DNA from: a virus
Taxonomy: Duplodnaviria; Heunggongvirae; Uroviricota; Caudoviricetes
Length of the DNA stretch: 64,000 nucleotides
Reading direction: 5' to 3' (one strand)
IMG/VR virus record: IMGVR_UViG_2802429331_000003
Span: 1-64,000 of that record
Position 1 is the stretch's first letter. Every line of letters begins with the position of its first letter. The position numbers were made by a program, and so were the translations under genes. The notes beneath the pieces were generated by a model. It did no database searches. It was not told where the DNA came from and was given only the letters and a program-made list of their open reading frames with translations. Below are positions 37,828-59,676 of the stretch, in pieces.

Positions 37828-37904
37828 AACACCACCGCCTGAATCATCTATTTGGCATTGTCCCAGCGGCTCGCACGGTTTCCAGATGATATGACTCGCC
37901 GTGG

Positions 37905-42320: not shown

Positions 42321-42638
42321 GCCCCCTCCTCACACCCCCACCCCCAACACGCACAACTACCCCCGCCCCACCCGTTACGGCGACGGGCCCGTTGCGCGTC
42401 TCCTATAGCGCATGGACGTGGCGCAGATCCTTCGTGAAGCCATAACGCAGATGTCCCAACGGCTTCAGCAACGCGCTGTCGACTCACAACCGGATTCGGA
42501 GCAGGAAATGACGATGAATGTGACCGGGCCCCCGGGGAAGCGCCGCGTGAGTGACGTTCCGCCGGAAGGCAAGCCAGACAAAGGGGGACCAGGCTCGGGA
42601 CGGATGCAGTGAACGGAAGCCCCGCCCGCCGGAGTCCC

Positions 42639-43994
42639 TTACGCCGCGAGCAGAACCCGCGTCCGCTCGTTGAACTCCGCCACCAGCGGGTGTGCGCCGA
42701 ACGAGTTCATCTTCTGCTGCACATCACGGACGGCCTCAATCGACCTCGAGGACTTGACCTTCCGGGAAAGATCGAGGGTCTGCACGCCGGCGGCGTACGC
42801 GGCCTCAAGGTCGCGCTTCTGGATCTGAGCGACTGCCAATGCAGCGTGCGACAGGGCGCCGCGACGCGCCCGGTTCTGGTTTCGGGCGTAGCTGATCGAC
42901 CTTTGGGCGTGTGGCTCAGCGTGATCCGGCAAACCGAGGTCGCGGAACGCATTGGCCCACTCGCCGCAGATGTACGCCTGGTCGATGAATCGAGCCCATT
43001 CCGGTTCCTGTTCCGGATTTACGGAAGAGAAGGCGCGTTCGGCCTCGTTGACCGCATGGCTGGTGCCGGACTTGTCGCCCAAGGTTGCGAGTGCTCGCGC
43101 TTCCAGCGTCCACAGATCTGCCAGACATGCAGGGGAATTCGCTCGCGCGAGACCTTGCCGACCGGCTTGGGCGAGGCGGCGGCCTTCTTCGGGGTGGCCC
43201 AGCAGCGTTGCCTGGTCCGCCATACCCGCAAGCACATGAGCGCCAAGGGCGGGATCGCGCGATTCCTCGGCGAATCGAAGGGCTTGGATCAGGTACCGCT
43301 GCGCGGTCCCGTGTTCCCCGTTGTCGAATGCCATCCAGCCGAGCAAGTATGTCTGCTCGGCTGCTGCGCCACACAGCGCACGGCGGGTCTCTTCGGTGTG
43401 TGTCCGCCCGAGAAGGGGATACACATGCTCGTTCATGTATGCGGCCAGGACCAGCCGACCGGAGCCGCCGCCCTGGAAGATGTCCATCTCCTGGAAGGTG
43501 CTGAACATGTTCTTCACCGCGGTGACGTCTTCGAGTCGCACTTTCTGACGCTCGTCAGGCAGCTGGTCGAGGGTGTTGAGCAGCCAATCGCGCGAGGGCT
43601 CGACAACAGCCGCCAAGGCGAAGGGTGCGGCAGTGAGGAATTTGCGGCGGTCCACGTCGGCCCTTCCCAGGTCGGTTACTGCTTCGATCGTTCGTGTCAA
43701 CGATGGGCTGTAGGTAAGGGCTCGGTCAACCGCATACGGATCGGCGAAGCCGAGATCGGCCACGGTCACCCGGTAGCCAAACCGGGACGAGAACAAATCC
43801 GCAAGGATCGCCGGCACCGGCGGCCGAGGCTGTTCCCCATCCTCCACCCAACGGCGGACGCTCGAGGTGTCCGGCCGAATCTGCGGCTCACCCCATTCGA
43901 TCGCGAGGGCACGCACCTTGCGCGCGAACTCGCCACGGCTCCAGCCCGAGCGAGCCAGCCAGTCCGAAAGCTTCACATTCGGAGCCTTCATCAC
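42639..43994 (-). CDS. Actinobacterial XRE-HTH + TPR-like regulator (451 aa), paralog 2.
   Basis: N-terminal HTH (LSDWLARSGWSRGEFARKV); same architecture as 40902..42320. Confidence 0.6.
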   Translation of the reverse strand: MMKAPNVKLSDWLARSGWSRGEFARKVRALAIEWGEPQIRPDTSSVRRWVEDGEQPRPPVPAILADLFSSRFGYRVTVADLGFADPYAVDRALTYSPSLTRTIEAVTDLGRADVDRRKFLTAAPFALAAVVEPSRDWLLNTLDQLPDERQKVRLEDVTAVKNMFSTFQEMDIFQGGGSGRLVLAAYMNEHVYPLLGRTHTEETRRALCGAAAEQTYLLGWMAFDNGEHGTAQRYLIQALRFAEESRDPALGAHVLAGMADQATLLGHPEEGRRLAQAGRQGLARANSPACLADLWTLEARALATLGDKSGTSHAVNEAERAFSSVNPEQEPEWARFIDQAYICGEWANAFRDLGLPDHAEPHAQRSISYARNQNRARRGALSHAALAVAQIQKRDLEAAYAAGVQTLDLSRKVKSSRSIEAVRDVQQKMNSFGAHPLVAEFNERTRVLLAA

Positions 43995-44140
43995 ACCACC
44001 TGTTCAGATCTCGCGGCCGGCAGATTCAACACCTCTTCAACACCCCCAAAGAACTTACTCGTCGCAGGTCACACCTTCCACACTCAAATAATCCTGGCTG
44101 GGGGTAGGCAGGCCGCCCAGCCCGCACAAGAGGGGCAACA

Positions 44141-44488
44141 ATGAGGGACACACCAACCGCTGTGGGGTATCTCCGCACCGACATCAGCGGACAACACCAG
44201 CAATGGGATGAAACCCGAATGCGTAACCGCGCAGCGCGTTTGGGCTACAAGCTCGCCAAGACTGTGGCGTTCAGCAACCGCCAGGACCAGCCGATCGAGA
44301 AGCTCGTGGAGACGGTTCGCAAGGTTGGGGCGGAAGCGGTATTCGTCCCCGGGCCACAACATTTCGAAGGTCAGCGGATTCCCGTCGAGATCGTGCAGAT
44401 CGCCGATGTGGTCACCGTCGACCCGGAAGGCACCTACGCGCGCAGGGCAACCGGCGACGTGCCCGACCTGAACGAGACGCAGCGATGA
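44141..44488 (+). CDS. Degenerate serine-recombinase (resolvase) N-domain-like protein lacking the catalytic Ser, paralog 1 (115 aa).
   Basis: AVGYLRTDISGQHQQ...RAARLGYKLAKTV resembles the resolvase opening GYxRVSTxxQ...G.......D but has D-I-S-G where R-V-S-T is expected. 4-nt overlap with the next gene. Confidence 0.4.
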   Translation: MRDTPTAVGYLRTDISGQHQQWDETRMRNRAARLGYKLAKTVAFSNRQDQPIEKLVETVRKVGAEAVFVPGPQHFEGQRIPVEIVQIADVVTVDPEGTYARRATGDVPDLNETQR

Positions 44489-45087
44489 CGGCTACCGGGC
44501 CGAAACCGCGGAGGCCCAAGGCAGTTGGCTACATCCGCGGCGATGTGGCCGGTCACCACCTGGACAGGCATGCCAACGAGATCGCGCTTCTGGCGCGACG
44601 AATGGGCTATCAGCTGATCTACATCGTGCGGCTGTGGCCGCAGTCGGTGCCGGAGCCGCTTCGACACGTACTCGGTATCGCCGCGGGATTGGATGCCGCC
44701 GCGGTGATCGTTCCCGACCTGGAACATGTCGACAACCAGCCGGGCCTTGTCTGCGACCTGTGCGACCTGATCACCGTGTTCCCCGAAGAAACCTGGGCAC
44801 GCGCGCTGCCTCTCCACAGCGACCCGTGCGAAGAGATGACGGTGAAGGACGCTCACCGAACTATGCAGGTACACATCACCTGCCGAGCCATGCATTGCTC
44901 GCGGAAAGCCGCCGCGCTGAAGACGCTCGTCGGTGCAGGGAGGGTCAAGCCGGCGACCCTCAGTCCACGGCAACGAGCGGCGGACCGCGGCCTCAAGTTC
45001 GAAGTCGCCGACACCGAACCCGACCTATCCCCCGGCGCCGACCTACAGACCTTGCTCGACGTCCTCGACGGGCTCCGGCGAGTGTGA
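44485..45087 (+). CDS. Degenerate resolvase N-domain-like protein, paralog 2 (200 aa).
   Basis: AVGYIRGDVAGHHLDRHANEIALLARRMGYQLIYIVR...AVIVPDLEHVDNQ; the catalytic Ser is absent. Confidence 0.4.
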   Translation: MTATGPKPRRPKAVGYIRGDVAGHHLDRHANEIALLARRMGYQLIYIVRLWPQSVPEPLRHVLGIAAGLDAAAVIVPDLEHVDNQPGLVCDLCDLITVFPEETWARALPLHSDPCEEMTVKDAHRTMQVHITCRAMHCSRKAAALKTLVGAGRVKPATLSPRQRAADRGLKFEVADTEPDLSPGADLQTLLDVLDGLRRV

Positions 45088-45111
45088 AATCCAACGAATA
45101 GAGGCAAGAAG

Positions 45112-46191
45112 ATGATCACGCGAACACTGGGAAGCTCCGGGATCGAGGTTTCCGGACTTGGAATCGGCTGCTGGGCGATCGGCGGGCCGGACACCAACTT
45201 GGGCCTGCCGATGGGCTGGGGACCAGTTGACGAGTCGGCTGCCATCGCTGGGCTTGAGCGTGCGTGGGAATCTGGCGTCACCCTTTTCGACACCGCGGAC
45301 GTTTACGGACACGGCCGCTCGGAACGCCTTCTCGGGCAGCTGGTCCCGCTGGTGCAGCGCGAGCGCATCCAGCTGGTGTCGAAAGTCGGCTACTTCGCCG
45401 GAACCGCGGCCCACGGCTACGACCCTGGCCACATGCGCCGCCAACTCGAACAAACCCTGGACAACCTGAACACCGACTGGCTGGACGTGTACTTCTTCCA
45501 CCACAGCGAATTCGGCCCCGATGACGAGCGCTTGGAGCTGGCCATCGAAATGATGAACAACTTCCGCACGGAGGGCCTGATCCGCGCGATCGGGATGCGA
45601 GGGCCGCACCGCTACGCACCCGACAGGCTGTCGACCGGGCCGAAAGCCAACAAAGAAGCCCGATTCCGGGAGCTGTTCGACCGCATCCGACCCCAGGTCC
45701 TCGCAGTTCGTGACAACCTGCTGACACCCCAGACCCGATCAAACAGCATCTTCACTTTCGCTGAGGACCACGGCTGCGGCGTCCTGATCAACAAGCCGCT
45801 ATCGCAGGGCCTGCTGACAGGCGCGTACACCACAGCCGAGCCCCGTACATTCGGGCCGCAGGATCACCGTGCCCGCAAACGCTGGTTCACCGGCGACGCG
45901 GTGCGGGTGATCGAGGCCGGCCTGGACCAGGTGCGCGCGCTCGTCGGCCCCGAGTCGAACGATCTCGTCCGGATAGCTCTCTGGTCCTGCCTGATGCGCT
46001 CGGACAACGCGGCGGTACTCGTCGGTTTCAGCGATCCGCAGCAAGTACAGGCCAATATTGATTGCTTGGGAGAACGGCCCGGCGACGAGATCCTCGAGCA
46101 GGTTCGCGCGATCATGGCCGACGTCCAAAAGCAGCTCGACGCCGACGGCGAGGTATTCGTGGACGAGGTATCAACAGGAGAGCAGCAATGA
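45112..46191 (+). CDS. Aldo/keto reductase family oxidoreductase (359 aa).
   Basis: AKR N-terminus LGSSGIEVSGLGIGCWAIGG and overall TIM-barrel AKR pattern. Confidence 0.75.
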   Translation: MITRTLGSSGIEVSGLGIGCWAIGGPDTNLGLPMGWGPVDESAAIAGLERAWESGVTLFDTADVYGHGRSERLLGQLVPLVQRERIQLVSKVGYFAGTAAHGYDPGHMRRQLEQTLDNLNTDWLDVYFFHHSEFGPDDERLELAIEMMNNFRTEGLIRAIGMRGPHRYAPDRLSTGPKANKEARFRELFDRIRPQVLAVRDNLLTPQTRSNSIFTFAEDHGCGVLINKPLSQGLLTGAYTTAEPRTFGPQDHRARKRWFTGDAVRVIEAGLDQVRALVGPESNDLVRIALWSCLMRSDNAAVLVGFSDPQQVQANIDCLGERPGDEILEQVRAIMADVQKQLDADGEVFVDEVSTGEQQ

Positions 46192-46970
46192 CGATCAGCA
46201 GCGAATCCGAGATCCGCTTGATGACGCTGAACGTCCAGCGCGCCAGCGAGGTCCGCGCACACCACCAGGTGGCGTGGCTTTCCGAGTACGCGGCCGACGT
46301 CGTGGTCCTCACCGAGGTGTCCGCCGGGCGCGCTGGAGATGTCACTGCCCGCCTGCTCGAGGAAGCGGGCTACAGCGTGCATCTGTCGAAGCCGGGAGAC
46401 GACAACTACCGGGTGCTACTGGCCGCGCGCGGAGTGGTCGAACCGATCGAGGCCGCAATCACAGTGATGCCCAACCGATTCGTGTTCGCTGGCATCAAGC
46501 CGTCCACGGGGTCCTGCTTCTCCGTCGCAGGACTGTATGTCCCTTCACGCGGGCCGAAGGAAGCACGAAACGTCGCAAAACGGGCATTCCAGGAGGCGGT
46601 TGCCGCGACCCTTCCGCAACTAGCCGAGCAGGTTGAGGTCGGCCCCTGTGTCATCACCGGCGACCTCAATGTGGTCGAGCCAGGGCACACACCGCACTAC
46701 AAAGTGTTCGGCACGTGGGAATACGACTTCTACCGATCCTTCGCCGCCAATGGCTTCACCGATGCGTTCCGGCTCCGCCACCCGGACCTGGTCGACCATT
46801 CATGGTTTGGCCGGCCGGCTAAGAACGGCAGCCGCAATGGATATCGGTTCGACCACACCTTCATCAGCACCGAGCATCGCGACCTCGTCTCCGACTGCTA
46901 TTACGAGCACCAGCCACGGCTTGACGGCATCAGCGACCACGCCGCGATGATCCTGACCCTGCGTATGTAA
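46188..46970 (+). CDS. Endonuclease/exonuclease/phosphatase (EEP) family protein (260 aa); ATGA-coupled to the AKR gene.
   Basis: EEP signatures LTEVSAGRAGD, ITGDLNVVEPGH, SDHAAMILTL. Confidence 0.65.
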   Translation: MTISSESEIRLMTLNVQRASEVRAHHQVAWLSEYAADVVVLTEVSAGRAGDVTARLLEEAGYSVHLSKPGDDNYRVLLAARGVVEPIEAAITVMPNRFVFAGIKPSTGSCFSVAGLYVPSRGPKEARNVAKRAFQEAVAATLPQLAEQVEVGPCVITGDLNVVEPGHTPHYKVFGTWEYDFYRSFAANGFTDAFRLRHPDLVDHSWFGRPAKNGSRNGYRFDHTFISTEHRDLVSDCYYEHQPRLDGISDHAAMILTLRM

Positions 46971-47069
46971 CCCATTCCCTACCAACACCCTTCAGCGCCC
47001 GACCCCAGATCGGCTCGCGCTGCGGCCCAGTGCTGCCGAAAACCGGTCGGACACCCCGCCCAGAACGGC

Positions 47070-49211
47070 ATGCCCATGCATCACACCGACCCCGTCACCT
47101 ACCGCATCCTCCGTGCGGTCGCTCTCGCCAACGGTGACACCACTACGACCGCAAAGCTTCTCACAGACCTCCACCTCACCGAGCCCAACCGGCTGCGAGA
47201 CATGCTCGCGACCACGATGCCCGCACGCGTCGTCGTCACCGGCACGCTCGACCGCCGCCTCCTCCTGGTCGAACATGAAGACCACGCCACCTGGACAATC
47301 GCCGAACTGTCCGGTCAGCCGCTTTCCGACCGCGACTGGCCCACCTGGGCGCGTGACGGAATCGTGTTCGAGGAAGGCGACTCCTGGATCAGCAACGCGA
47401 ATCTGAACGAAGCAGCGGAACACCGATTCGCTCGCCCTGCCGTGCTACTGACGGCTCTCTACCATCCGGAGTACTTCCCGCTGCCCCGGTTTCCCTTGGC
47501 CATCAGCGATCTCGCCCGCGCGGCCCGCGCCACCCTCACAGGCCACACCACGTTGATGGACATGCAGCTGGGCGTCACCCTCGACGACATCATCGAGGCG
47601 GTCCATACGCGCAGACCCGACATCCTCGGCATCTCAGCGACATTCGGCCAACATGACCTCCTCGTGAATCTGCTCGAGGACATCGAGTCACTTCACGATC
47701 GGCCGCTGGTCATCGCCGGAGGCAGCCTCACGGCCCGCAACGAACACCTCCTGCTGGAACGCTGGCCGTGGTTGCTGATCGCCCGCGGCGCCGGCGAACC
47801 CACGATCGCCGACACGCTCGCATTCTGGAATCGTGACATCGGCTTCAGCGAGATCCGCGGCATCGGCTACGTCGGCGCCGCACGTGGAGAAGGAACTCTG
47901 GCCATCGGCCGCTACCGCAAATCCGCGACCGTCCCCAACCGGACCAGCACCGACATCTTCCCCGAACTCGACCTTCTGGCACCGACTTTCGAAAACCTGG
48001 GCGTCGCGCAACTCGAGTCCTCCCGCGGCTGCACCAACTACTGCTCCTTCTGCCCCCGCGGCCACAAAGGAAAGTGGTCCGGCGTCCCACCGGAGCAACT
48101 GCCAATGATCGTGTCGGCCATGGGCGATGTATTCGACCGATATCCCCAAATCGCGAGGACGCTCTATCTGGTCGATGAAGAATTCGTTGGCCGCGGCCCG
48201 GACGCTGTCGATCGCGCCCTCAACGTCGCCGAGGTCCTCCACCAGCAACGCTTCGCCTGGGAAACCTCCTGCCGAGTCGACCAGGTCGTGCGCACCGATA
48301 CCGACCGGGCCTGGCATCTCGAACGCGCGCAAATGTGGAGATCGTTGTGCGAGAAGGGACTTCGGCGCTGCTTGTTCGGCGTCGAATCGGGCGTGACGTC
48401 GATCCTCACCAGGTTCAACAAGGAGACCACCGGTGAGCAGAATGCCCTGGCGATCAGAACCCTGTCCGCGCTCGGCGTGCCGACCAGATTCACTTACATC
48501 ACCTTCGACCACCTCATGACCGAAGCCGAACTGCGAAGCACCTACCACTTTCAATCCCGCACTGACCTCATCCTGAAGCCACTGCCCCACATGCCGATCG
48601 AGGACATCATCGACGGCGTCCGAGACGAATCCTTCGTCGCCGAGCACACCACCGGCCGACCCTTCTACACCGGCATCTCCTACATGCTCGTCTCGATGGA
48701 ATGCCTAATCGGCGCCGCGTACACCAAACAGGTCCAGGCCGCCGGACTCGCCGGCGCGGCCCGACCGTCGATGGGACGCCTCGACGCCCAATTCGCGGAT
48801 CGCCGAATCGGCGTCCTGTCCCAGCACGCACAGCTCTGGGTCGACCGGCATTTCGCCCTCGACTACACCCTCAAGTCGCTGGAAAAGATCCTCGACGGCC
48901 ACCCTCGCGCTGCGGCAAGAGGAGCACGAGGAGTCATCAAAGACGCGGCATTCGAACTCTTCAGCGACATGCTCGACACTCTCGACGTGTGGTCGCCGGA
49001 CAGCACCGACCTCGACGGATTGGCAACCATCCTCACCAAAATGATGGACGCACGCTTGGAACCACTGGCCGAACGTATGACGAAAACCGTTGCCGGCCTG
49101 CGACAGATCCTGCCTCCCGATGACCGGCAACTCCTCGACGTCGAGTTCGACCGATGGACCGACCGCAGCGGATGGGAACTGATCAACGCAGCCGATCCAT
49201 GCGGAACCTAG
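47070..49211 (+). CDS. B12-binding-domain radical SAM enzyme (class B rSAM), 713 aa, with an extra N-terminal domain of about 130 aa and a long C-terminal extension.
   Basis: Radical SAM cluster motif SSRGCTNYCSFCPRG (CxxxCxxC); upstream cobalamin-binding-like Rossmann segment DILGISATFGQHDLLVNLLEDIESLHDRPLVIAGGSLT. Confidence 0.75.
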   Translation: MPMHHTDPVTYRILRAVALANGDTTTTAKLLTDLHLTEPNRLRDMLATTMPARVVVTGTLDRRLLLVEHEDHATWTIAELSGQPLSDRDWPTWARDGIVFEEGDSWISNANLNEAAEHRFARPAVLLTALYHPEYFPLPRFPLAISDLARAARATLTGHTTLMDMQLGVTLDDIIEAVHTRRPDILGISATFGQHDLLVNLLEDIESLHDRPLVIAGGSLTARNEHLLLERWPWLLIARGAGEPTIADTLAFWNRDIGFSEIRGIGYVGAARGEGTLAIGRYRKSATVPNRTSTDIFPELDLLAPTFENLGVAQLESSRGCTNYCSFCPRGHKGKWSGVPPEQLPMIVSAMGDVFDRYPQIARTLYLVDEEFVGRGPDAVDRALNVAEVLHQQRFAWETSCRVDQVVRTDTDRAWHLERAQMWRSLCEKGLRRCLFGVESGVTSILTRFNKETTGEQNALAIRTLSALGVPTRFTYITFDHLMTEAELRSTYHFQSRTDLILKPLPHMPIEDIIDGVRDESFVAEHTTGRPFYTGISYMLVSMECLIGAAYTKQVQAAGLAGAARPSMGRLDAQFADRRIGVLSQHAQLWVDRHFALDYTLKSLEKILDGHPRAAARGARGVIKDAAFELFSDMLDTLDVWSPDSTDLDGLATILTKMMDARLEPLAERMTKTVAGLRQILPPDDRQLLDVEFDRWTDRSGWELINAADPCGT

Positions 49212-49816
49212 CTGGCGGCCTCGGGAATCGGTACCCAGTTGAACTCAGGGCAGAACCGCGCATAGGTGGTGAGCTTCCAGGCCGCGTACTCCTCCAACCG
49301 GCCCGTATCCCGAAGCAGATGCTTCACCCAGGTGTGCGCGATCCGCTCAGGGTCGGTCATGGTCGCCTCGATGTCGTCGAGCATCCGGCATGCAACCGCG
49401 AAGTCCTCCTCGGTCTGCACGCTCAGGTCGACCTCGACCTCATCGACGGAAAACACGTACACCAACCGGGTCGTCGAGGTGCTGGTGAAACGCTCACCCT
49501 TGAACTTCGCGTGCCGGTCGATGACGGAGCGCAGCTGCTCGCGCTCGTCGACCGGCCAGCCGATAGCAAGATCGAGGTCGCTGGTCTCGAGATTGCAGCG
49601 CAGTCCGAACGATCCGACATCGCGGGGCTCGCGGCCGGTCCATTCTCGGATGAGGTCTGACGCCTTCGTTCGGGTGGCGAGCAATCGCGCGTCATGGGCG
49701 CGGCGCGCCTGCCAGAATGCCTGTGCCCGAGCCCATTCCGCGGCCGGAAAGTCGTTTGGTTCGGCCCAACCCGAGGCCACGATCGCATCCAGGTCGAACA
49801 CCTTCGCGTCTGTCAC
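49208..49816 (-). CDS. Minimal nucleotidyltransferase (Pol-beta superfamily) with helical C-terminal domain, 202 aa; convergent and stop-overlapping with the rSAM gene.
   Basis: NTase motif VGSFGLRCNLETSDLDLAI (G-S-x9-13-D-x-D) and third acidic strand RLVYVFSVDEVEVDLSV. Confidence 0.65.
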   Translation of the reverse strand: MTDAKVFDLDAIVASGWAEPNDFPAAEWARAQAFWQARRAHDARLLATRTKASDLIREWTGREPRDVGSFGLRCNLETSDLDLAIGWPVDEREQLRSVIDRHAKFKGERFTSTSTTRLVYVFSVDEVEVDLSVQTEEDFAVACRMLDDIEATMTDPERIAHTWVKHLLRDTGRLEEYAAWKLTTYARFCPEFNWVPIPEAAS

Positions 49817-49900
49817 AGGGGCAGGCTACCGTCACAACGTCGCAGATCACCGTGTTACACGAAACTGACTCGCCCAAATGAAACCTTGAAGGGATCCTTG

Positions 49901-50362
49901 GTGCCGTACCTCAACCACGTTGACGTTCACCTCCTGCTCGTGCGCGATGACCAGATCTTCCTGGCTCGCCGAGCCAACACGGGGTACGCCGATGGGCTAT
50001 GGAATCTCCCCTCCGGAAAGCTCGACCCGGGTGAGGATCTCATCGCCGCAGTCATGCGCGAGGCGAATGAAGAGGTCGGGTTGGAGCTGGAGCGCCCCGC
50101 GATGCAGCTGGCGACCGTCGTTCACAAGCATGCGCCGGACGGTCCTGCGCGGGTCGGGACGTTCTTCCTCGCGACACGCTGGGTCGGCGAGCCCCGCAAT
50201 GCAGAGCCGCACAAGTGCAGTGAGATCGCATGGTTCCCCATCGACGAATTGCCTGACGATGTTGTGCCCTACAGCAGGGCAGGGATCGAGCAGTGGCGCC
50301 GTGGTGAATCGTTTGGCCTGCTCGACTGGCCGCACCATCGACTCGCAACCGGTGCCGCATGA
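49901..50362 (+). CDS. NUDIX hydrolase (about 153 aa).
   Basis: GTG start after GAAGGGA; Nudix box GKLDPGEDLIAAVMREANEEVG. Confidence 0.75.
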   Translation: MPYLNHVDVHLLLVRDDQIFLARRANTGYADGLWNLPSGKLDPGEDLIAAVMREANEEVGLELERPAMQLATVVHKHAPDGPARVGTFFLATRWVGEPRNAEPHKCSEIAWFPIDELPDDVVPYSRAGIEQWRRGESFGLLDWPHHRLATGAA

Positions 50363-50898
50363 TGTGGACGATTCGCAGAGCGGAGTCCGGCGACGGTCTT
50401 CGGCTCCGCTCGCTTCGACTCCAGGCACTAACCGACGCGCCGGAAGCCTTCCTCGAGACTTACGACCAGGCGGTGGCCCTCGAACCTGGAGAGTGGGAAT
50501 CGCGCATAGAACGGTCACGGCAGCCAGGGCACCAACTCCTGGTCGTGGGTGAGGCCGGCGGAATCTGGTTGGGTATGGCAGGGGCTTTCGTGGATTGCGA
50601 TCGCGACTCTGCGGATCTGACGATTCCGGTTGGTCCGCAAGATCGTTGGGCGATGCTCTGGGGCATGTATGCGGTCCCAACAGTTCGCGGCCAGGGCCTC
50701 GCCGCTGAATTGTGCACTGAAGCGCGCAAGTGGGCGGCCATCGAAGCGCGTGTGAGCTGGCTGGGTCTGGACGTACGGGATTCAAACGCTCGCGCGATCC
50801 GGTTCTACCGGCGCGAGGGATTCGAAGTCGTGGCCCGCCGCGAGCACCGCGAGTTGGGTGTGACATCACTGGTGATGGTGCAACCGGTTGCTATCTGA
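50359..50898 (+). CDS. GNAT family N-acetyltransferase (179 aa); its last about 6 codons lie in the palindromic repeat junction.
   Basis: GNAT motif A-like VPTVRGQGLAAELCTEARKWAAIEARVSWLGLDVRDSNARAIRFYRREGFE; 4-nt overlap with the NUDIX gene. Confidence 0.7.
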   Translation: MMWTIRRAESGDGLRLRSLRLQALTDAPEAFLETYDQAVALEPGEWESRIERSRQPGHQLLVVGEAGGIWLGMAGAFVDCDRDSADLTIPVGPQDRWAMLWGMYAVPTVRGQGLAAELCTEARKWAAIEARVSWLGLDVRDSNARAIRFYRREGFEVVARREHRELGVTSLVMVQPVAI

Positions 50899-51459
50899 CT
50901 TGCGCCATGTCGGCCACCGGCCTACGGGAAGCGCGTGAACGATGCCGAGCCACTCGCAGTGCCGACAGCTCGGCATCTTCATGTCACAGTGACGTTTCCA
51001 TCGAGACCCTAGGCCAGGCTCGAATGCCCGCCGCTGGAGCCGAATCCGCCGGTTCCACGTTCGGCTTCCTCCAGCTGCTCGACACATTCGAAGTCGACCA
51101 GCTCGATGCGCTGAACGATTAGCTGCGCGATGCGGTCGCCGCGGCGGATCTCGATCGGGGTGCGCGGATCCAGGTTGATCAGGCAGACCTTGACCTCGCC
51201 GCGGTAGCCGGCGTCGATGGTGCCGGGCGCATTAACGATCGACAGGCCGGCTTTGGCGGCGAGGCCCGATCGCGGATGGATGAGCCCGACCGTTCCGATT
51301 GGGAGTTCCAGCGCGATGCCAGTGCCGACGAGCACCCGCTCCCCCGGCCCGATGACCTCGTCGTTAGTCGTGCGCAGATCCACGCCGGCATCGCCTTCGT
51401 AGATGCGGACGAGGTCGAACCAGGTGGGGTCTGATTTCCGGTATCGAATGGGTTCGCGG
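50892..51459. repeat. Copy A of an approximately 570-bp unit (dut + 3' flank), reference orientation.
   Basis: Identical ORF strings recur on opposite strands in the ORF track (e.g. 51217..51402 + equals 51520..51705 -). Flanked on the left by the 12-bp palindrome gcaaccggttgc. Confidence 0.8.
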
Positions 51460-51464
51460 GTCAC
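51009..51464 (-). CDS. dut: dUTP diphosphatase (dUTPase), 151 aa; the only full-length copy.
   Basis: dUTPase motifs [52 protein letters not shown]. Confidence 0.85.
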
Positions 51465-52036
51465 GCGAACCCATTCGATACCGGAAATCAGACCCCACCT
51501 GGTTCGACCTCGTCCGCATCTACGAAGGCGATGCCGGCGTGGATCTGCGCACGACTAACGACGAGGTCATCGGGCCGGGGGAGCGGGTGCTCGTCGGCAC
51601 TGGCATCGCGCTGGAACTCCCAATCGGAACGGTCGGGCTCATCCATCCGCGATCGGGCCTCGCCGCCAAAGCCGGCCTGTCGATCGTTAATGCGCCCGGC
51701 ACCATCGACGCCGGCTACCGCGGCGAGGTCAAGGTCTGCCTGATCAACCTGGATCCGCGCACCCCGATCGAGATCCGCCGCGGCGACCGCATCGCGCAGC
51801 TAATCGTTCAGCGCATCGAGCTGGTCGACTTCGAATGTGTCGAGCAGCTGGAGGAAGCCGAACGTGGAACCGGCGGATTCGGCTCCAGCGGCGGGCATTC
51901 GAGCCTGGCCTAGGGTCTCGATGGAAACGTCACTGTGACATGAAGATGCCGAGCTGTCGGCACTGCGAGTGGCTCGGCATCGTTCACGCGCTTCCCGTAG
52001 GCCGGTGGCCGACATGGCGCAAGTCAGATAGCAACC
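51465..52036. repeat. Copy B, inverted relative to A; dut copy lacks the native start codon.
   Basis: Mirror image of A around centre about 51462 (ttcgcg ggtca cgcgaa). ORF 51539..51913 + encodes a dUTPase identical to A from Met28. Confidence 0.8.
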
Positions 52037-52405
52037 GGTTGCTATCTGACTTGCGCCATGTCGGCCACCGGCCTACGGGAAGCGCGTGAACGATGCCGAG
52101 CCACTCGCAGTGCCGACAGCTCGGCATCTTCATGTCACAGTGACGTTTCCATCGAGACCCTAGGCCAGGCTCGAATGCCCGCCGCTGGAGCCGAATCCGC
52201 CGGTTCCACGTTCGGCTTCCTCCAGCTGCTCGACACATTCGAAGTCGACCAGCTCGATGCGCTGAACGATTAGCTGCGCGATGCGGTCGCCGCGGCGGAT
52301 CTCGATCGGGGTGCGCGGATCCAGGTTGATCAGGCAGACCTTGACCTCGCCGCGGTAGCCGGCGTCGATGGTGCCGGGCGCATTAACGATCGACAGGCCG
52401 GCTTT
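52037..52405. repeat. Copy C, same orientation as A, truncated at about 52405 (dut 3' portion only).
   Basis: Perfect spacer-less palindrome centred at about 52036 (agatagc aaccggtt gctatct). ORF 52160..52438 encodes the dut C-terminus. Confidence 0.8.
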
Positions 52406-52811
52406 GGCGGCGCGGCCCGGGGCCCACCGGTACGCCATGGCGCGGCACAGGAACGAATCGGAGCACCCGCCGCGCCGAGGGCGCGCCAGCGTCAGCGACT
52501 CGCGAGCCGTTGGCGCGCGCCATCCGTGCCGTGTTCGCGCCGAATGGTCGCCGCGCGACGTTCTTGCAGGTCAGAGCCCTTTTTCTTCTTTACGTGAGAC
52601 TTAGGCCAGACTTACTTAGTCTCACCTAAATCATCTCGAATACCCCCTCTGACCTGGCATTTCACCGCAGGACTTGACATGTCGCCGCACTACCATCTAG
52701 CTTCGTTTCTCGTCACCGACCAACGGCGACAGCGACGGACCGGCCAGCCACCACGGCGGGCCGCGACAACAGCCCGGACTCACCGGCCGGGCGAACGATG
52801 GGAGACCCGAA

Positions 52812-53525
52812 ATGACCAGCGCCACAACGGAAGCCGCCACGGCCACCACACCCGAATCCTTGGATGAGCCGCTACTCATCGGAGAATGCGAGATCGAGCC
52901 CGGCGTCCGATTCCGCAAGGTGACCAAGGGCGGCAAGCACATTGGCAACGTGATGGCGTTAGGCGATGAATGGCTCGGTATGCCAGTCCGACAGGGCACC
53001 GAACCGATCTACGCCGCAACGCTGAAAGACGTTGTGCTGGCACTGGAAACGACCGCCAAGGGTCGGCGTAGCGAGCGCACCCCCGCCGCCCCCAAGGATC
53101 CAAAGGTTGCCGCATTGAAGGCGCTTACACTGGCGGCTCGGTACAGCGACCGGGCGGCGGGCGATGTCAAGAAGATTGAGCGTCGGTGGGACCGCTTCCG
53201 TAGCACGGCCGAATACCGCAATGCATCCGACAAGGTGCAGGCCGCGAAGGACGCGCTGACCAAGGGTGCACAGACTCTCGCCAAGCAGGACCGGCTGGAC
53301 GTGGCAGAGATCGAATTCACCCGGCTCACCAAGATTGATGAGGCGTGGGCGGAAGCTGTCGAACGGTTCGAACAGCGTGCCGCTACCGCTAAGGCGCAGC
53401 TTGCCCAAGCGCACGCATTTGCCCAGGAACCCGACCAGGGCGCGACTCAGGCGGAAGCGGACGCCGCTGTGAGCGAAGCGCGTAAGCCACGTCAGCCGCG
53501 TAAGCCCAAGGCTGCGGCCAAGTAG
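52812..53525 (+). CDS. Hypothetical early protein (237 aa); Lys/Ala-rich C-terminus.
   Basis: Clean ORF with RBS; first gene of the rightward block. Confidence 0.5.
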   Translation: MTSATTEAATATTPESLDEPLLIGECEIEPGVRFRKVTKGGKHIGNVMALGDEWLGMPVRQGTEPIYAATLKDVVLALETTAKGRRSERTPAAPKDPKVAALKALTLAARYSDRAAGDVKKIERRWDRFRSTAEYRNASDKVQAAKDALTKGAQTLAKQDRLDVAEIEFTRLTKIDEAWAEAVERFEQRAATAKAQLAQAHAFAQEPDQGATQAEADAAVSEARKPRQPRKPKAAAK

Positions 53526-53689
53526 CGACGGCCGATTCTGTACGGCAGCAATCCGGCGATAAGCCGGATTGCTGACCGGGCAGAGTTTCCGTAGCGGAAT
53601 CTCTAGGGGACACCATGTTTGAGCCCCGGCGACAGTTCTCACGATGGACGGCTAGCAGCGGACTATGGCGCTGAGCGGGGTAGGCCCTC

Positions 53690-53800
53690 GCAAATCTTCG
53701 CCCTTCGGGGCAAAACGTCACCTTTCGAGGTGAATTCCTTTGCCCCGCTTGGGGCGCAATCCCTCGCCCCTCGGGGCAAACCCAAATCCGGTGCGCAACT
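53690..53800. repeat. Three tandem GC hairpin repeats (gccc(c)-loop-gggc followed by aaa).
   Basis: cgcccttcggggcaaaac / ttgccccgcttggggcgcaa / cgcccctcggggcaaaccc. Confidence 0.55.
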
Positions 53801-54186
53801 GAACGTTGCGGCCAGCCCTGGAGCCCTGGGTGTTTCGCGGAACCAGACAGTCGGCGCATGCGCCGGGCAGTGGAAGCGAACGGGCTGTGTCGTTTGAAAA
53901 CTCAATAGTGGGCCATTGGTGGCACCGATAACCATCCGGTGCGGCAGAGAGTGCGTGAGATTCCGTTTCGACGTTTCAAATGCACGGAACGTGTCGCCCG
54001 GTGTCACCACCGAAATTGTTGCCCTGCTCGGGGATTCGTCTCCGGGCAGGTCTGAGAGTGCACCGCGCAATCGGTGCATTGTCAGACCTGTGTCAGCAGG
54101 TCTTCGGCCAGTCCTGGCCGCCATGGTCGGCGCGATTCACCGCGCGCTGGCCATGCGTATCCACCGTGAATGATGGGAGATCCCAA

Positions 54187-54657
54187 ATGGTTTCGCTGTA
54201 CAAGTGGACGCCGCAGCAGTACGAGCGCGCAGAGCAGTTCTTCGATGTGTTCGACGGTGTGTTCCGGCCGTCGGCGGGGCGTGCGGTCCCGTCCGGTGTC
54301 GAGGTCGTGACGGTTGACCGGGACTACACGGTGACGGCCGCGCAAATCTCGCCGGATGGCGTGGCGCGGTACTTCCGTGATGGCGTGCAGATTCCGCACG
54401 TCGATCCTGTCCTGCCGTCCGCGATGACGCGCACGGCCGAGCGGTACGCGGCAGTGTTGCCGGAGGTACACCATGCGGTATTCGAGCAGGTTTACGGGTT
54501 GACCCCGGCGCGGGCCGCTGAGGCACTGTTGGTGCACGCGTCGGGTATGCCGCTGTGCCTTGAGACGTGGCTGTATGCGGCGCGGATTGATGCTCGGCTG
54601 CGTGCTGCGCTGGCCGGTGCCGAGCACATCGTGCGTCTGCCGATGTTCGTGGTTTAG
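54187..54657 (+). CDS. Hypothetical protein (156 aa).
   Basis: Internal ATG after gggagatcccaa of ORF 53980..54657. Confidence 0.45.
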   Translation: MVSLYKWTPQQYERAEQFFDVFDGVFRPSAGRAVPSGVEVVTVDRDYTVTAAQISPDGVARYFRDGVQIPHVDPVLPSAMTRTAERYAAVLPEVHHAVFEQVYGLTPARAAEALLVHASGMPLCLETWLYAARIDARLRAALAGAEHIVRLPMFVV

Positions 54658-56157
54658 CTCGCCAATCGCTGTGGCCGCCATCCATTCCGGGTGGCGGCCT
54701 TTCCTATGCCCAAGGAGGGCTGATGCTTTCGCTCGACAAACCCACCCGCACCCTGGCCGCGCCGCGAGATGCGCTGGCGGCCTATCAGGTTGAGGCCCGC
54801 CTGCGCGCCCCGGGCCTGGCCGTCCCGATCGTGTCCGGCTTGCTGGCCAACAACGCAAATGCGCTGGCGTTCGCCATCGAGTACCGGCGCTGAACGGGTG
54901 AGCGGAGCTACCGGCCCGCCCGGTAGTTCCCCCGACTCTTCAGCCACTCATTCGTAATTCGTTTCATCGGGAGGAAGTCATGGAAGTGGAGTTGGAATGG
55001 CGTGTCATTTCGAAATGGATGGACGTCGCCATCCAGGCCGCCGAGACGGAGGGATGGCACGTCTGGCAGGGGCCTGATGCCAGCTGGCGGTTTCGGCGTG
55101 AGGGCGTCTATGAGCAGTTTCCGGCGACGCCGGAGACGATGGACCAGCTCAAGTACTTCCTGTTCAAGGTGCAGCGGGTGCTTGGGGTTGATTTGCAGAA
55201 GGGTATGGCGTGAGGCAGTCTGGAATCTTCGGATCATCCCCGGTGTTTTTGCCCGGGGATATCTCTTCGGCGGACGTGGGAGGTTGGATCATGCCGGGCT
55301 GGTCACTCGAGGTGCAGGCCGATACGGGAGCGTTGACCGAGCAGCAGCAGTCACGGCTGATGCACGGGTTCGGTCGCTGGGTGATGTTGTCCCACAACAC
55401 CGCAACTGGCCGCACATCGTTCGGTGTGCCAGTGGAGGATGCGCCGCTGCGGGAGGCGATCACCGAGACTCTCGATACCGCTGAGAACGTGCTGCGGTCG
55501 GTGCTGGCGGACGCGCGCCTGGTGGGTGTGCAGGTCATCTCCGCAGAGGATCGCGACGCCGAGCTGGCTGCCGCCGGAATCTTCATCGACTAACGACAAA
55601 CCAAATCTCCAGGGCCCCGGGCGATCTGCTCGGGGCCTTTTTCGTGCCCGGAAACGGGCGGACAGGCTGGAAGAACATGACGTACACGGTCGAAATGTGG
55701 GGCGCGTATGGCGGCCACTTGGAGTCGGGTCTCAAGGGTAGCGAACGCATGTGCGGCCAGCTGGTCGAGCAGGTGATGAATGATCTGCTGCGCGACGGGT
55801 GGGCCATGGAGGTCATAACGAGCGACATCCTTGGCGGTCTCGCAACGGCTTTCACAATGCGCCACCCGGTTACCGGCCAGGAGATCGGCGGCTTGCGCAC
55901 CGTGGCGGTGGCCCGATGAAAAAAGCCACACCCAAGCGTATGCCTGTCGTCGGTGACGTCTACCGCGACAAGCGGGAGGACAACTTCCGCACCCTGCGAG
56001 TCGTCAAGGACCTCGGCGATGGCCGTTTCGAGTGCCTGGTCATCGAACAGACCTACCGAGGCATAACCAAGTACCCGAACCGCACCACGACGCCGAGCGT
56101 CAAGCACCTCACGACCATGTTTGTCCTGATCAGCGAAGGCAAGGAGGCGACGGTCTG

Positions 56158-56721
56158 ATGCCGGTGTACGTGTGGCTGCGGCCGGAGTTTGAGGGCCGCG
56201 AATCCGAGCTGATGTTGCTGGCTGATGTGGCCAAGGAGTTGGGGGTGAGCCCGCAGGCGGTGACGAACTGGCGTCGGCGGCATCCTCGGCAGTTCCCGCC
56301 CACGGTTGCGATGGTGGGCCGCCTGGTCTACGTGGCACGGGCCGAGGTGATCGACTTCGCGGCCAGCCGAGGACTGCCGCAGCCCGACGTCGTCCCACCG
56401 CAGAATCCTTCGACGGTTTGGCATCGGCCTGAGTTCATGGATCGGCCGCACCTACTGGTGAACTTGGCGGAGGTCGCCGCGCAGTTCGGTGTCTCTCGCC
56501 AGGCGGTGTCGTGGTGGCGCCAGCGCGGTGACGACTTCCCCGCGGCGGTGTTCGAGAGCGCGCGGCAGGTGCTGGTTGTCCGCACTGAAATCGAAGACTG
56601 GGTTCGGGCGCGCAACCTGGCCCGCGCCGAGCGCGCTCACGCACGACGAGTGCAGGCCAGTCGTGAGCGTGCACGTCGGCGACTCAGTGACGCCGTGCTC
56701 ACGCCCGGCACCGCCGCCTGA
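56158..56721 (+). CDS. Tandem excisionase/MerR-like winged-HTH DNA-binding protein (187 aa).
   Basis: Two repeats: LLADVAKELGVSPQAVTNWRRRHPRQFPP...YVARAEVIDFAASR and LVNLAEVAAQFGVSRQAVSWWRQRGDDFPAAV...VVRTEIEDWVRAR. Confidence 0.55.
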   Translation: MPVYVWLRPEFEGRESELMLLADVAKELGVSPQAVTNWRRRHPRQFPPTVAMVGRLVYVARAEVIDFAASRGLPQPDVVPPQNPSTVWHRPEFMDRPHLLVNLAEVAAQFGVSRQAVSWWRQRGDDFPAAVFESARQVLVVRTEIEDWVRARNLARAERAHARRVQASRERARRRLSDAVLTPGTAA

Positions 56722-57283
56722 AAGTCCCAACAGATTCAGGCCCCCGACGCGGGTGCCGTCGGGGGCTTTCTCACGCCCTTCACCGGGGCGCATCAACCAT
56801 CCAGGGAGACAACCGAAATGAAGACGATGACCGCGTTCGCCGCCGGTGCGCAGCGAACGCGCGCCGAGGTGGCGCTGTTCGAAGAATGCGGCCTGCCGAT
56901 CTCGCCATCGGTCGCGCGAGCCATAGCTCAGCACTGGGCAACCGCGTCCTCAGATCTGCTGCCCATGGCCATGGGCATGCCGTTCGAGCCGGAATCGGCA
57001 CTCGCCGACGTCGAAGCACGCATGAATCTGTCGGGTTACCGGGCTGGTGAACTGTCCGCTCTGGCGGCGTGGCTGCGGAGCAAGGTCCGGGTTGCCGGTG
57101 GCGCGAAGCGTGAGGCACTGGCTGCGAAGACCGTTGGGTGCGCCGCCGGCCTCGACCTGTTCAGCGTCCGGGATGAGGTCATCTCCATGAGGTAGGTATC
57201 GGATTTGAAGTTCGCCCCCATTCGTGGGGGTGTTTTTGAACCCCGATCTTTACACCGTAAAAGAACGAGCAGAAAGATATTCG

Positions 57284-58111
57284 ATGAAGGTTCTCGAACT
57301 GCTGGATTCCGACCAGATCCACGAAGCTCGGCAGTGGATCTACGACCACACCGAGCATGTCGGCTGGGATTGGACCGGCACCGAAGTCACCACCTACTTG
57401 GATGAGAACTACCGAGGTGGGACGAATGCCTTCGACGCCTCGGTCCGGGGGCAAATGGCACGGGCCTACGGAAAGGACTGGCACAGCGGGTGCGACCACT
57501 TCGCCACCTTCTACAAGGCGTCCTGGCGCTCAAATGGCAAAGACCTGCTGCTGATCAATGCCACCCGCTCCAAGGACTGCTATGGCTACGACGACGCCAT
57601 CGGCATCGCGAACACCCGCGTCCTGCACCGGCAGTGGGGAACTGCCGCAGGGCTTTCCGACGGTCCGTACGCCGATTGCGATTACCTCGCACTGGATCTC
57701 GATTCACTGGCGCCCGAAGACCTGACCGATGTCCTCGACTCCCTTGAGGGCTACCCGTGCCTCGACGAGGAGGAATGGTCAGCCGTCGAACAGGAGCAGA
57801 TCCAGGAGCACTGGGACGACTACGGCCGCTGGGATCTGCACAAGGCGGTCCGCGAAGCCATCGGAGCGTGGGAACTCACCGAGGCCGGCGAGGCACTCAT
57901 CGACGAACTCGCCTGGGGCGGATACATCGACTACGGCCACGGCGGCGGCTACCCCAACATGATCGACCCGTCAGCCTGCGACTTCGGCGAGAAGGTCATC
58001 CCCGAATGGATCGCCACCCGCCTGGGCACAGTCGTCACCCTTGCCCGCTGGCGCGGCGACGAGCTGGTGCTGGATCTCCGCCACCGCAACCTCATCGCTG
58101 AATCCGCGTGA
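57284..58111 (+). CDS. Hypothetical protein (275 aa), acidic, Trp-rich.
   Basis: Internal start MKVLELLDSDQIHE. Confidence 0.45.
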   Translation: MKVLELLDSDQIHEARQWIYDHTEHVGWDWTGTEVTTYLDENYRGGTNAFDASVRGQMARAYGKDWHSGCDHFATFYKASWRSNGKDLLLINATRSKDCYGYDDAIGIANTRVLHRQWGTAAGLSDGPYADCDYLALDLDSLAPEDLTDVLDSLEGYPCLDEEEWSAVEQEQIQEHWDDYGRWDLHKAVREAIGAWELTEAGEALIDELAWGGYIDYGHGGGYPNMIDPSACDFGEKVIPEWIATRLGTVVTLARWRGDELVLDLRHRNLIAESA

Positions 58112-58464
58112 TGCCCGACGACAGCTGGATCGAGGAGCTGCGGGCCGCGATCGAATCCGAGAATCCCGGCGTCTCGCTGTGGATTCACGCAGCCGACACC
58201 TACCTGATCCCGGCCCGCCTCATCGTCCCTGAAGGCGAACGCAACCGCGGAATCGGCACCGCGATCATGCACCGCATCCTGGCCGAGGCTGACCGACGGG
58301 GCGTGCCGACCGCGCTGACCCCCAGCAACGCATACGGCGGGGCGGTGACGCGGCTTCGCCCCTTCTACCGCCGATTCGGATTCGTCCCCAACCGTGGCCG
58401 GGCGCGCGACTTCGCCACCGCTGAGGCGATGGTCCGCGCCCCCAAACCCGAAGGAATCAAATGA
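58108..58464 (+). CDS. Small GNAT-like acetyltransferase (118 aa).
   Basis: RNRGIGTAIMHRILAEADRRGVPTALTPSNAYGGAVTRLRPFYRRFGF (GNAT motif A and B-like). Confidence 0.5.
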   Translation: MMPDDSWIEELRAAIESENPGVSLWIHAADTYLIPARLIVPEGERNRGIGTAIMHRILAEADRRGVPTALTPSNAYGGAVTRLRPFYRRFGFVPNRGRARDFATAEAMVRAPKPEGIK

Positions 58465-59676
58465 CACCCATCGAACGCCTGGACCTGGGCGTCATCGACG
58501 GATTCCGGATTCACGCCCGGATGTACGGCGACGAGGACGAGAGCCCCGAGCGCAAGTACGACCCGATCCTGTGCGACCCCGAGCTGATGGCGGGCTGGTG
58601 CGCCGACGAGTGGTGCTTCGTCGGCGTACAGGTGACCGCAAGCCGCGCCGGTGTGGAGCTGGGCGAGGCGTCGGTGTGGAGCCTCGAATACGGCTGGTAC
58701 AACGGCCGATACCACAATCCGCTCACCGATTCCCCAGCCACGCATGAGGACTGGGTGTACGGGAACGGTCCGAGCCTCATTCATCAGGCCATCGCGGATG
58801 CATTCGAAACCATGGCTGCGATCCGAAAGCCTGCGCGTCTTCAGGGGGTGTAAATGCCTCCCTTCATGTCCATGTCTGCTGGTTATTCTCGCTCGGCAAC
58901 GTAGAGCGAAATGCCTTACCGGCAACAACATTTACAAGAAACAAAATGAAAGAAACACCACGAATGCGGACGATCTACACCTACGACTATCTCGCCTACG
59001 TGCTACAGACCGGCAACTTCCGCAAGGGCTGGAACGGCGAAGTCCCCTCCATTTACGAATGCGTCGAGAACTTCCAGCACGAACCCGTCTTCGTCTAACC
59101 GCCAGCAGCTGAGGAGAAGCCGATGACCACCACTCACGACGACGTCACCTACGCCGACCGCGTCGAAGCCGCGCACCTCGGTCAGGTAGCAATCCTGGCC
59201 AGCGCCAGCGCAGGCGGCCACCAGCGCGCGATCGAAGAACTCGACAACACCGACGAGTTCCAAACTCTCGCATCGGATGTCATCGCCAACGTCCTAATGA
59301 CCGCATACTCCCGCGGCGAGGACACTGACGCCATCCTCGCGCACGCCCTCTACCACTTCCAAGGCGAGAGGCTCCCCGAGGCGGTCGAGAACGTCGCCAT
59401 CGAGGCACGCGACGAAGGCGAGTTCGACATCTGCGACTGCGGCTGCGGATTCGTGGCCGAGGAAACCTACATCACCAACGTCAACGGCGGCCTAGACATC
59501 CTCGTCTCGAAGATCGGCGGCGGGATCACCGGTCAGGCGTACCACGGCGAATGGACCTATCACGTCACCCGATGGGGCAAGCCGCTCACCCGCCCGAGCA
59601 AGTTCACCAGCCGGGCTCCGATGACCCACCGCGACGTCGCATACGCCGTCGCCGAGTACTTCACGGAAGGCTGACC

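Follow-up and report, generated by a model that had tools for sequence, protein, structure and literature searches.

Inverted triplications similar to the one analysed here are seen in human DUP-TRP/INV-DUP (FoSTeS-MMBIR) events, which likewise combine short interrupted inverted repeats at the boundaries, serial microhomology template switches and point changes near the joints. The closest bacterial system is the tandem-inversion duplication (TID) of Salmonella described by Kugelberg, Roth and co-workers, in which a segment is present three times and is inverted in its middle copy; its inversion joints lie at pre-existing short palindromes or quasi-palindromes at which the nascent strand snaps back, and its unit needs no replication origin (PMC4689423). 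Interstitial inverted triplications formed by ODIRA in yeast are bounded by short interrupted inverted repeats and show serial microhomology template switches with point changes near the joints; both the Kugelberg TID model and ODIRA need pre-existing short inverted repeats to yield inverted triplications (PMC4689423). Technical look-alikes are also known. Fold-back or inverted-repeat chimeric reads can form while libraries are prepared or long reads are sequenced (PMC10908179, PMC12870357). Such reads, like bad gap closures, have joints at native inverted repeats or palindromes, appear in one dataset only and involve a hard-to-sequence tract. A dUTPase (dut) locus in a Nocardia prophage resembles each of these systems in the features just named.

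The window (the whole 64,000-nt stretch analysed) is 100% identical to scaffold KV411304.1 of Nocardia terpenica IFM 0406 (GCA_001625105.1), where it lies inside a large prophage that a portal-protein search places near Gordonia phages (about 49% identity). Repeat search with subsequent extension revealed two 579-nt arms (50880-51458 and 51464-52042) that are 100% complementary and separated by the 5 nt GGTCA. A second palindrome without a spacer, centred at 52036/52037, is exact over 51661-52412 and reaches 51654-52419 if one mismatch is allowed. The perfect palindromes measure 1.16 kb and 0.76 kb, and perfect inverted repeats of 579 and 376 nt cannot have arisen by chance; the repeat search detected no further long inverted repeat in the 64-kb window beyond the dut locus. 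Three 100% identical copies of one unit make up the structure, the central one inverted. Copy A (50880-51458, minus strand, 579 nt) is followed by copy B (51464-52042, plus strand), its exact reverse complement, and by copy C (52031-52412, minus strand), which holds the 3′ part of dut and repeats the first 382 of the 579 nt of A in direct orientation (50880-51261 equals 52031-52412 exactly). The preliminary description of this locus had recognized the (-,+,-) topology, the A|B palindrome with its 5-nt spacer, the spacer-less B|C palindrome and the duplicate ORFs on opposite strands, which are present in the ORF listing. All of these were confirmed, and the end of copy C, previously put at about 52405, lies exactly at 52412.

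The copied gene encodes a trimeric dUTP diphosphatase, as had been assigned earlier: the ORF of copy A (51009-51464, 151 aa) matches Pfam PF00692 with an E value of 1.6e-30 over profile positions 8-129 of 129. Neighbouring genes encode a NUDIX protein, a GNAT acetyltransferase (50359-50898, plus strand; PF00583, E 1.4e-11) and a 237-aa protein without a family match (52812-53525, plus strand), the last being the first gene of a rightward early-type operon and the right anchor common to all datasets. A terminator-like stem-loop found by repeat search between the convergent GNAT and dut genes (50941-50977; DNA fold -15 kcal/mol, z -4.0) has been copied along into B (51945-51981) and C (52092-52128). 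The 579-nt dut segment shows no sign of a replication origin, a requirement of ODIRA only. Copies B and C encode N-terminally truncated versions of the copy A sequence. The ORF of B lacks the GTG start and has 124 aa counted from an internal GTG, or 146 aa from an ATT start in the GenBank version (KZM72232 / WP_067592642); that of C has 92-96 aa with foreign N-terminal residues fused on (the 96-aa product is KZM72233). Copy A alone keeps the GTG start, as first described, and the native upstream region is absent from all three copies.

These features argue against a selected gene amplification that raises dUTPase dosage for phage or host, as the word "amplicon" might have implied. Although three dut-derived ORFs are annotated, the start codon survives only in copy A, deletion has removed the 159 nt natively upstream, A and B stand head-to-head without intergenic DNA, C is a 3′ fragment, and one copy suffices in the sister strain; we consider selection for dosage extremely improbable. 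Equally hard to credit is a programmed DNA element, whether an invertible switch, a pair of transposon ends, or a phage palindrome serving as hairpin telomere or replication origin. Such elements do carry long inverted repeats, but the identical prophage lacks the structure in three datasets, the junctions are microhomologies within a coding gene, and none of the adjoining genes checked encodes an invertase, transposase or protelomerase. In addition, the arms are 100% identical and therefore show no evolutionary age.

A single dut copy occupies the same position in three other datasets of the species, none of them from IFM 0406 itself: SRR11861893 (L002, a PacBio run of IFM 0706T, used here as the single-copy parent), BAGI01003838 (L008, the older NBRC 100888 assembly) and SRR11352997 (L003 and L007). 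In GenBank, the three gene products of the IFM 0706T locus have consecutive accessions (NQE86621-23). Window positions 32382-61280 are otherwise 100% identical to the sister datasets (about 28 kb compared). The preliminary description had suggested a comparison with related phage genomes; the informative comparators were these sister datasets of the same prophage, whereas the phage collection, searched at the DNA level for distant matches, contributed generic dut homologues only and no useful comparator. Exact-pattern scans of viral and genome contig collections with a 39-mer containing the palindrome p1 (see below) gave no match, so the prophage sequence is evidently missing from the genome that represents the species. 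The exact GNAT protein is present in four contigs, the junction-specific proteins were found in the NCBI record only, and further window proteins that were looked up matched only already known samples. Since only one assembly is triplicated while three others hold one copy, the triplication has no functional role and reflects either an error of assembly or an accident of replication in the very recent past. The two explanations offered at the outset, fold-back replication or recombination at short palindromes and an assembly or chimeric-read artefact, both remain live.

The parental order is GNAT, p1, one dut, the hairpin h2, 159 nt with a strong G-quadruplex tract, a hairpin-rich 68 nt and the early operon. 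Relative to this parent, 219 nt are replaced by 998 nt in the window. Copy A is 100% collinear with L002 5353-5931 and retains the parental position and orientation. The single-copy parent (L002, L003 and L008) is identical through window 51471, so that the change to the 3′ end of the GNAT gene suspected earlier did not materialize. The 159 nt of L002 5945-6103 are missing, with 0 of 140 20-mers found in the window in either orientation, and the adjacent 68 nt (L002 6104-6171) are inverted at 52408-52475 (minus strand), as seen by blastn and explicit alignment. Triplication had been correctly proposed, but the event is more complex, with two further junctions, the 68-nt inversion and the 159-nt loss. 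A TID-type pure gain with intact flanks does not account for this; the outcome calls for additional switches or for a second event.

Four strand switches can be placed. The first, J1, is the hairpin h2 at 51451-51471 (GGTTCGCG-GGTCA-CGCGAACC; 8-bp stem, 5-nt loop), where A turns to its mirror B. It is intact in the parent (L002 5924-5944; DNA fold -10.5 kcal/mol, z -2.5), and the annotated dut GTG start straddles its stem/loop boundary. J2 (52031-52042) is the spacer-less centre of the second palindrome, where the last 12 bp of B are also the first 12 bp of C. This joining sequence is p1, a native perfect palindrome (GCAACCGGTTGC) that also forms the left edge of A (50880-50891) inside the last GNAT codons, as previously noted, and exists in the parent at L002 5353-5364. 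Both inversion joints therefore lie on inverted repeats older than the rearrangement, in agreement with the initial view that the junctions fall on short native palindromes. At J3 (52408-52412), a 5-nt microhomology (CGGCG, from the alignment) links copy C to the inverted segment. J4 (52470-52475) is CCGCGC, one arm of the native 6-bp inverted repeat GCGCGG...CCGCGC (L002 6104-6109 / 6164-6169), and 100% parental collinearity is back from window 52470, corresponding to L002 6164, onward. The inverted 68 nt contain two substitutions, 52417 A>C and 52421 T>G, which are mirror-symmetric within the small palindrome GGCAC-G-GTGCC. Under either reading, the joints were made by strand switches, one after another, at short inverted repeats native to the locus.

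The lost parental segment carries the only canonical G-quadruplex (G4) motif of the region, and the 64-kb window has none. In SRR11352997, a dataset other than the IFM 0406 assembly, one contig stops 18 nt short of the G tract (L002 6023) and the next begins 13 nt beyond it (L002 6084). Both fold-backs point at this tract, one from each side. The parental intergenic region gave no promoter or terminator consensus matches, a result that is uninformative for an actinobacterium.

One reading is that IFM 0406 DNA does carry the structure. The prophage would then have undergone a complex rearrangement, very recent and confined to this strain, in one replication or repair episode with four template or strand switches. 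A fork or break would stall at the G-quadruplex tract; the nascent strand would snap back at h2 and copy dut backwards to p1, switch a second time there and copy 382 nt forward, jump by the 5-nt microhomology to the opposite strand past the G tract, and return at the 6-bp inverted repeat. The product would be a symmetric TID (an inverted triplication) with the G4 segment deleted and no function. Expression of dut would probably be lost, because the gene no longer has its native upstream region and A faces B head-to-head. Several observations fit this route: J1 and J2 fall exactly on short inverted repeats already in the parent, J3 and J4 have 5-6 nt of microhomology, and a G4 tract between hairpins is a plausible in vivo fork barrier. 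The 52417 substitution agrees with the copy A continuation GGCCCG, as expected from an imperfectly matched primer end; the second substitution has no template in this in-cell model. The remainder of the assembly is free of errors against the sister datasets over about 28 kb. Moreover, the described pipeline requires reads across each junction and long reads that back the order and the length, and it would rebuild a true structure naturally, with contigs broken at the edges of the repeats and rc(A) joined to A through the 12-nt p1. We give this reading a substantial chance, though one short of even.

Most TIDs described so far have been remodelled, and bacteria generally tolerate long perfect palindromes poorly and do not maintain them stably, as work on SbcCD in E. 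coli indicates. Against a real rearrangement, both palindromic centres are fully intact, and palindromes of 1.16 and 0.76 kb are of a length that is poorly tolerated. Compared with TID, the unit is just 0.58 kb, the third copy is truncated, both palindromic joints are perfect and unremodelled, and two strand switches, the 68-nt inversion and the 159-nt loss are added; no selection is evident, and the locus is known from assembled sequence alone. ODIRA differs in that it requires an origin in the unit and loses no flanking DNA, and ODIRA and DUP-TRP/INV-DUP events are eukaryotic and span kilobases to megabases.

On balance, we lean slightly towards the triplication being absent from the true IFM 0406 genome and having been generated during sequencing and assembly, a judgement drawn from sequence comparison. 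The structure is private to one assembly and absent from independent data of the same sequence, and the rearrangement lies where the short-read contigs of SRR11352997 break, the replaced segment containing the G4 tract with fold-backs facing it on both sides. IFM 0406 was assembled from CLC contigs of Nextera 2x250 reads with SSPACE-LongRead and then GapFiller (PMC5159576), PacBio reads serving to scaffold the Illumina contigs and k-mer extension to close the gaps. Reading through the G tract would have failed, and the only molecules or paths to continue from either side would be snap-back products made by a polymerase at whichever inverted repeat was nearest, h2 to the left and GCGCGG/CCGCGC to the right; the mirrored extensions would be merged where at least 10 nt are common, at the 12-nt p1. 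GapFiller joins two extensions at a minimum overlap of 10 nt (PMC3446322), which the 12-nt palindromic overlap at J2 satisfies. That J2 was the first palindrome of at least 10 nt met by the gap filler was considered and rejected: the 10-nt CGCCGCGGCG (L002 5610-5619) lies inside copy C. In the Illumina lagging-phase error, a base equals the preceding base after GGC in an inverted repeat (PMC3141275). Both substitutions (A>C and T>G) repeat the base in front of them, come right after GGC and sit in an inverted repeat; fitting this signature, they suggest a consensus from few poor Illumina reads. We infer that, in this case, strand switching happened in vitro or in silico, not in the cell.

Other evidence weighs against a workflow origin. 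GapFiller applies a majority vote (r = 0.7) and closes a gap only when the insert differs by no more than 50 nt from the size estimated with long reads (PMC3446322), whereas here 998 nt stand for 219 nt. Fold-back chimeras are normally rare reads and not a 1-kb consensus, and these documented rules should reject them. Normal reads should dominate at h2 and at L002 6164, and the well-covered parental stubs (L002 5945-6023 and 6084-6163) would be expected in the assembly, yet are absent. SSPACE-LongRead positions repeat copies by individual long reads, so the order A, rc(A), A would have to be present in the PacBio reads as well. Nothing points to a systematic fault: the window contains 33 other palindromes of at least 12 bp without such a structure, and a C-rich tract at 42349-42354, a second contig break site in SRR11352997, is correctly assembled in IFM 0406. 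No step-by-step route from the parental genome through the published pipeline to the triplication could be constructed, which we count against an artefact.

Under either reading, the triplication is a mutational or technical by-product and no new genetic system. Were it an artefact, the public assembly of IFM 0406 would give a false picture of the prophage dut locus, would hide a 159-nt intergenic G-quadruplex segment adjoining the early-operon control region, and would have placed two spurious "dUTP diphosphatase" proteins in databases, KZM72232 / WP_067592642 (146 aa) and KZM72233 (96 aa), with UniRef entries; it would also warn that hairpin-flanked G-rich tracts can lead pipelines of contig building, scaffolding and gap filling to assemble false fold-backs. 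If the triplication is real, which we judge somewhat less likely than not, the locus would be a natural, unremodelled symmetric TID in an actinobacterial prophage, with intact 1.16- and 0.76-kb palindromes, formed in one episode of four switches triggered by a hairpin-flanked G4 tract, and two near-clonal strains would give parent and product to the base. It would then offer a rare base-resolution view of the proposed unstable inversion-duplication intermediate with parent and product sequences known, and would mean that a Nocardia chromosome can hold kilobase perfect palindromes, at least transiently.

A repeat search with extension resolved the dut (dUTPase) locus into an inverted triplication. 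Copy A spans 50880-51458, and its dut ORF (51009-51464, minus strand) encodes 151 aa (Pfam PF00692, E 1.6e-30). Copy B (51464-52042), separated from copy A by a 5-nt spacer, GGTCA (51459-51463), reproduces it exactly as a reverse complement. Copy C (52031-52412), whose start falls within the final 12 nt of B, is a direct exact repeat of A over 382 nt. The B/C centre is a perfect 12-bp palindrome, GCAACCGGTTGC, and the same 12-mer opens copy A within the final codons of the GNAT acetyltransferase gene (50359-50898). These limits confirm, sharpen and extend the (-,+,-) layout of the preliminary description; its truncation of copy C is borne out, with 52412, the last base of the exact match, replacing ~52405. 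The 64-kb window contains no other long inverted repeat and no N characters.

An exact match to the GNAT protein led to Nocardia terpenica IFM 0406 (GCA_001625105.1), whose scaffold KV411304.1 is 100% identical to the window over 20.5 kb, and the dut locus sits within a large siphovirus-type prophage. An integrase gene occupies 1-1326, the late genes run on the minus strand from HNH/terminase at ~37.7 kb down to lysis and tail genes, including a very long tape measure protein (17390-25948, minus, 2852 aa), and a rightward early-type operon starts at 52812. The portal protein shares ~49% identity with its counterparts in Gordonia phages, DatBoi and Bantam among them. The late and early operons are separated by an unusually large metabolic cargo block (~38-52 kb; 38000-52400), which encodes two SP15_N proteins, an aldo-keto reductase, a B12-binding radical-SAM protein (713 aa), an Exo_endo_phos protein, two NUDIX hydrolases, GNAT and dut. 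Near 7.4 kb (6748-7542) lies a gene for a ThyX-type thymidylate synthase (PF02511). At the head of the late operon, a tRNA-Trp (CCA) gene (37403-37477, minus) is flanked by HNH endonuclease (~37522-37722) and small terminase (36766-37293) genes. A 12-nt motif, TATTCAGTTGTG (at most one mismatch), occurs 11 times in 12824-37247 against 0.07 expected by chance, for example at 17353-17377, 26863-26886, 27892-27915, 31213-31236, 32359-32370 and 37236-37247. All 11 copies, mostly tandem doublets, are on the plus strand of the late-gene region, where genes are on the minus strand. The coding-strand form, CACAACTGAATA, is found in the short intervals that immediately precede late genes, in one case 14-37 nt ahead of where the major head protein gene starts (31199); it resembles the 'start-associated sequences' known from some mycobacteriophage clusters.

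Look-ups of the same proteins identified a single-copy form in other datasets: L002, a contig of SRR11861893, which is a PacBio Sequel run of type strain IFM 0706T (PMC7441235); BAGI01003838 (L008) of the older NBRC 100888 (= IFM 0706T) assembly; and two contigs of SRR11352997 (L003 and L007). The gene order in L002, L008 and L003/L007 is GNAT, a single dut and the 237-aa gene (52812-53525, plus strand) that begins the early operon, and the IFM 0706T GenBank annotation lists the three products under consecutive accessions, NQE86621-23. Over 32382-51471 and 52470-61280 the window and these contigs match at 100%, so the triplicated locus is the sole difference in ~28 kb. The single-copy form has unique sequence that is absent from the window, which makes it the parent. 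The triplication, lacking in the identical prophage elsewhere, is not a conserved element.

The window is collinear with the parent through 51471. Hairpin h2 (51451-51471; GGTTCGCG-GGTCA-CGCGAACC; DNA fold -10.5 kcal/mol) is therefore native, and the 3' end of GNAT, which the preliminary description had considered changed, is untouched. Beyond it, 998 nt (51472-52469) stand in place of 219 nt (L002 5945-6163), a net gain of 779 nt, through four strand switches. J1 passes from A to its reverse complement at h2, and J2 (52031-52042) returns to A at palindrome p1, whose native site is 50880-50891. J3, at the 5-nt microhomology CGGCG (52408-52412), joins copy C to parental 6104-6171 in inverted form (window 52408-52475). 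J4, at CCGCGC (52470-52475), which is half of a native 6-bp inverted repeat (GCGCGG...CCGCGC), restores the parental sequence in forward orientation from 6164. The inverted 68-nt segment differs from the parent by two substitutions, 52417 A>C and 52421 T>G, which mirror each other within a small palindrome, GGCAC-G-GTGCC. Parental L002 5945-6103 (159 nt) is lost, with 0 of its 140 20-mers present in the window in any orientation. On sequence grounds, this pattern is well accounted for by serial template (strand) switching, with short inverted repeats and microhomologies that already existed serving as the switch points. It matches both the tandem-inversion-duplication (TID) model of Kugelberg and co-workers and ODIRA inverted triplications (both summarised in PMC4689423), from which it differs by two added switches deleting the G4 segment.

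The lost 159 nt hold GGGGCGGGGAGGGGGGTCCGGG, the sole canonical G-quadruplex (G4) motif of L002; a scan of both strands of the 64-kb window found none. This strong G4 tract (L002 6042-6063, plus strand) has the dut start hairpin on one side and, on the other, a palindrome-rich stretch of CGCCATGGCG, GGCAC-C-GTGCC and GGCGCGCC. The SRR11352997 contigs stop at L002 6023 and resume at 6084, exactly either side of it. J1 is the snap-back expected of a plus strand halting ~98 nt left of the tract, and J4 that of a minus strand halting ~34 nt right of it. DNA synthesis that nears the G4 tract from either side and turns back at the closest inverted repeat thus accounts for both outer junctions, no matter which polymerase was at work. 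The other SRR11352997 contig break (window 42349-42354) lies next to a C-rich tract, containing several runs of C5, in the intergenic gap 42267-42638. Two paralogous minus-strand genes with SP15_N domains (40902-42266 and 42639-43991) border this gap; IFM 0406 and the IFM 0706T PacBio-run contig agree 100% across the site. The parental dut/237-aa intergenic region (L002 5945-6171) precedes the divergent early operon and may serve to control it; most of the region is missing from the window, and it is invisible in the IFM 0406 assembly.

The event may have been cellular or a product of the workflow; we lean towards an artefact of sequencing or assembly. Bacteria tolerate kilobase-scale perfect palindromes poorly, the triplication is private to the IFM 0406 draft, and it stands exactly in place of the tract at which the contigs of another dataset break, all of which we counted for an artefact. 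We counted likewise the 12-nt palindromic overlap at J2, longer than GapFiller's 10-nt merge threshold (PMC3446322), and the changes at 52417 and 52421, each of which repeats the base before it and follows GGC within an inverted repeat, the signature of Illumina lagging-phase error (PMC3141275). The draft combined Nextera 2x250 CLC contigs, SSPACE-LongRead scaffolding with 40x PacBio CLR and GapFiller 1.10 (PMC5159576). That the rearrangement is real and confined to IFM 0406 is a substantial possibility, somewhat short of even, and several points count for it. GapFiller extends by 70% majority and closes a gap only within 50 nt of the long-read estimate (PMC3446322), and SSPACE-LongRead positions repeat copies from individual long reads; a parental genome should therefore have yielded kept, well-covered stubs and an open gap, not +779 nt. 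No concrete route to the artefact could be constructed; a true triplication would be rebuilt naturally by the described pipeline. Assembly was also correct at 33 other palindromes of at least 12 bp and at the second SRR11352997 contig break, and the first substitution matches the way copy A itself continues, as expected of an imperfectly matched primer end. Against a real event, unremodelled long palindromes are far rarer than artefacts.

Either way, the feature is of a known kind, a TID-like fold-back rearrangement or a fold-back misassembly, and is without function. Selected amplification was rejected: no GTG start is left in B, C amounts to a 3' fragment, and the native upstream region is gone from all copies. 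The preliminary description was right in its topology and its two alternatives, and its 'amplicon', like its GNAT change, is unsupported. Two GenBank/UniRef proteins exist only through the triplicated locus: a 146-aa 'dUTP diphosphatase' (51473-51913, plus strand, annotated with an ATT start; KZM72232.1 / WP_067592642.1 / A0A164LBR9) and a 96-aa dUTPase fragment (52160-52450, minus strand; KZM72233.1 / A0A164LBT0). In practical terms, the locus is suspect, and two of the dUTPase entries that public databases list are spurious.
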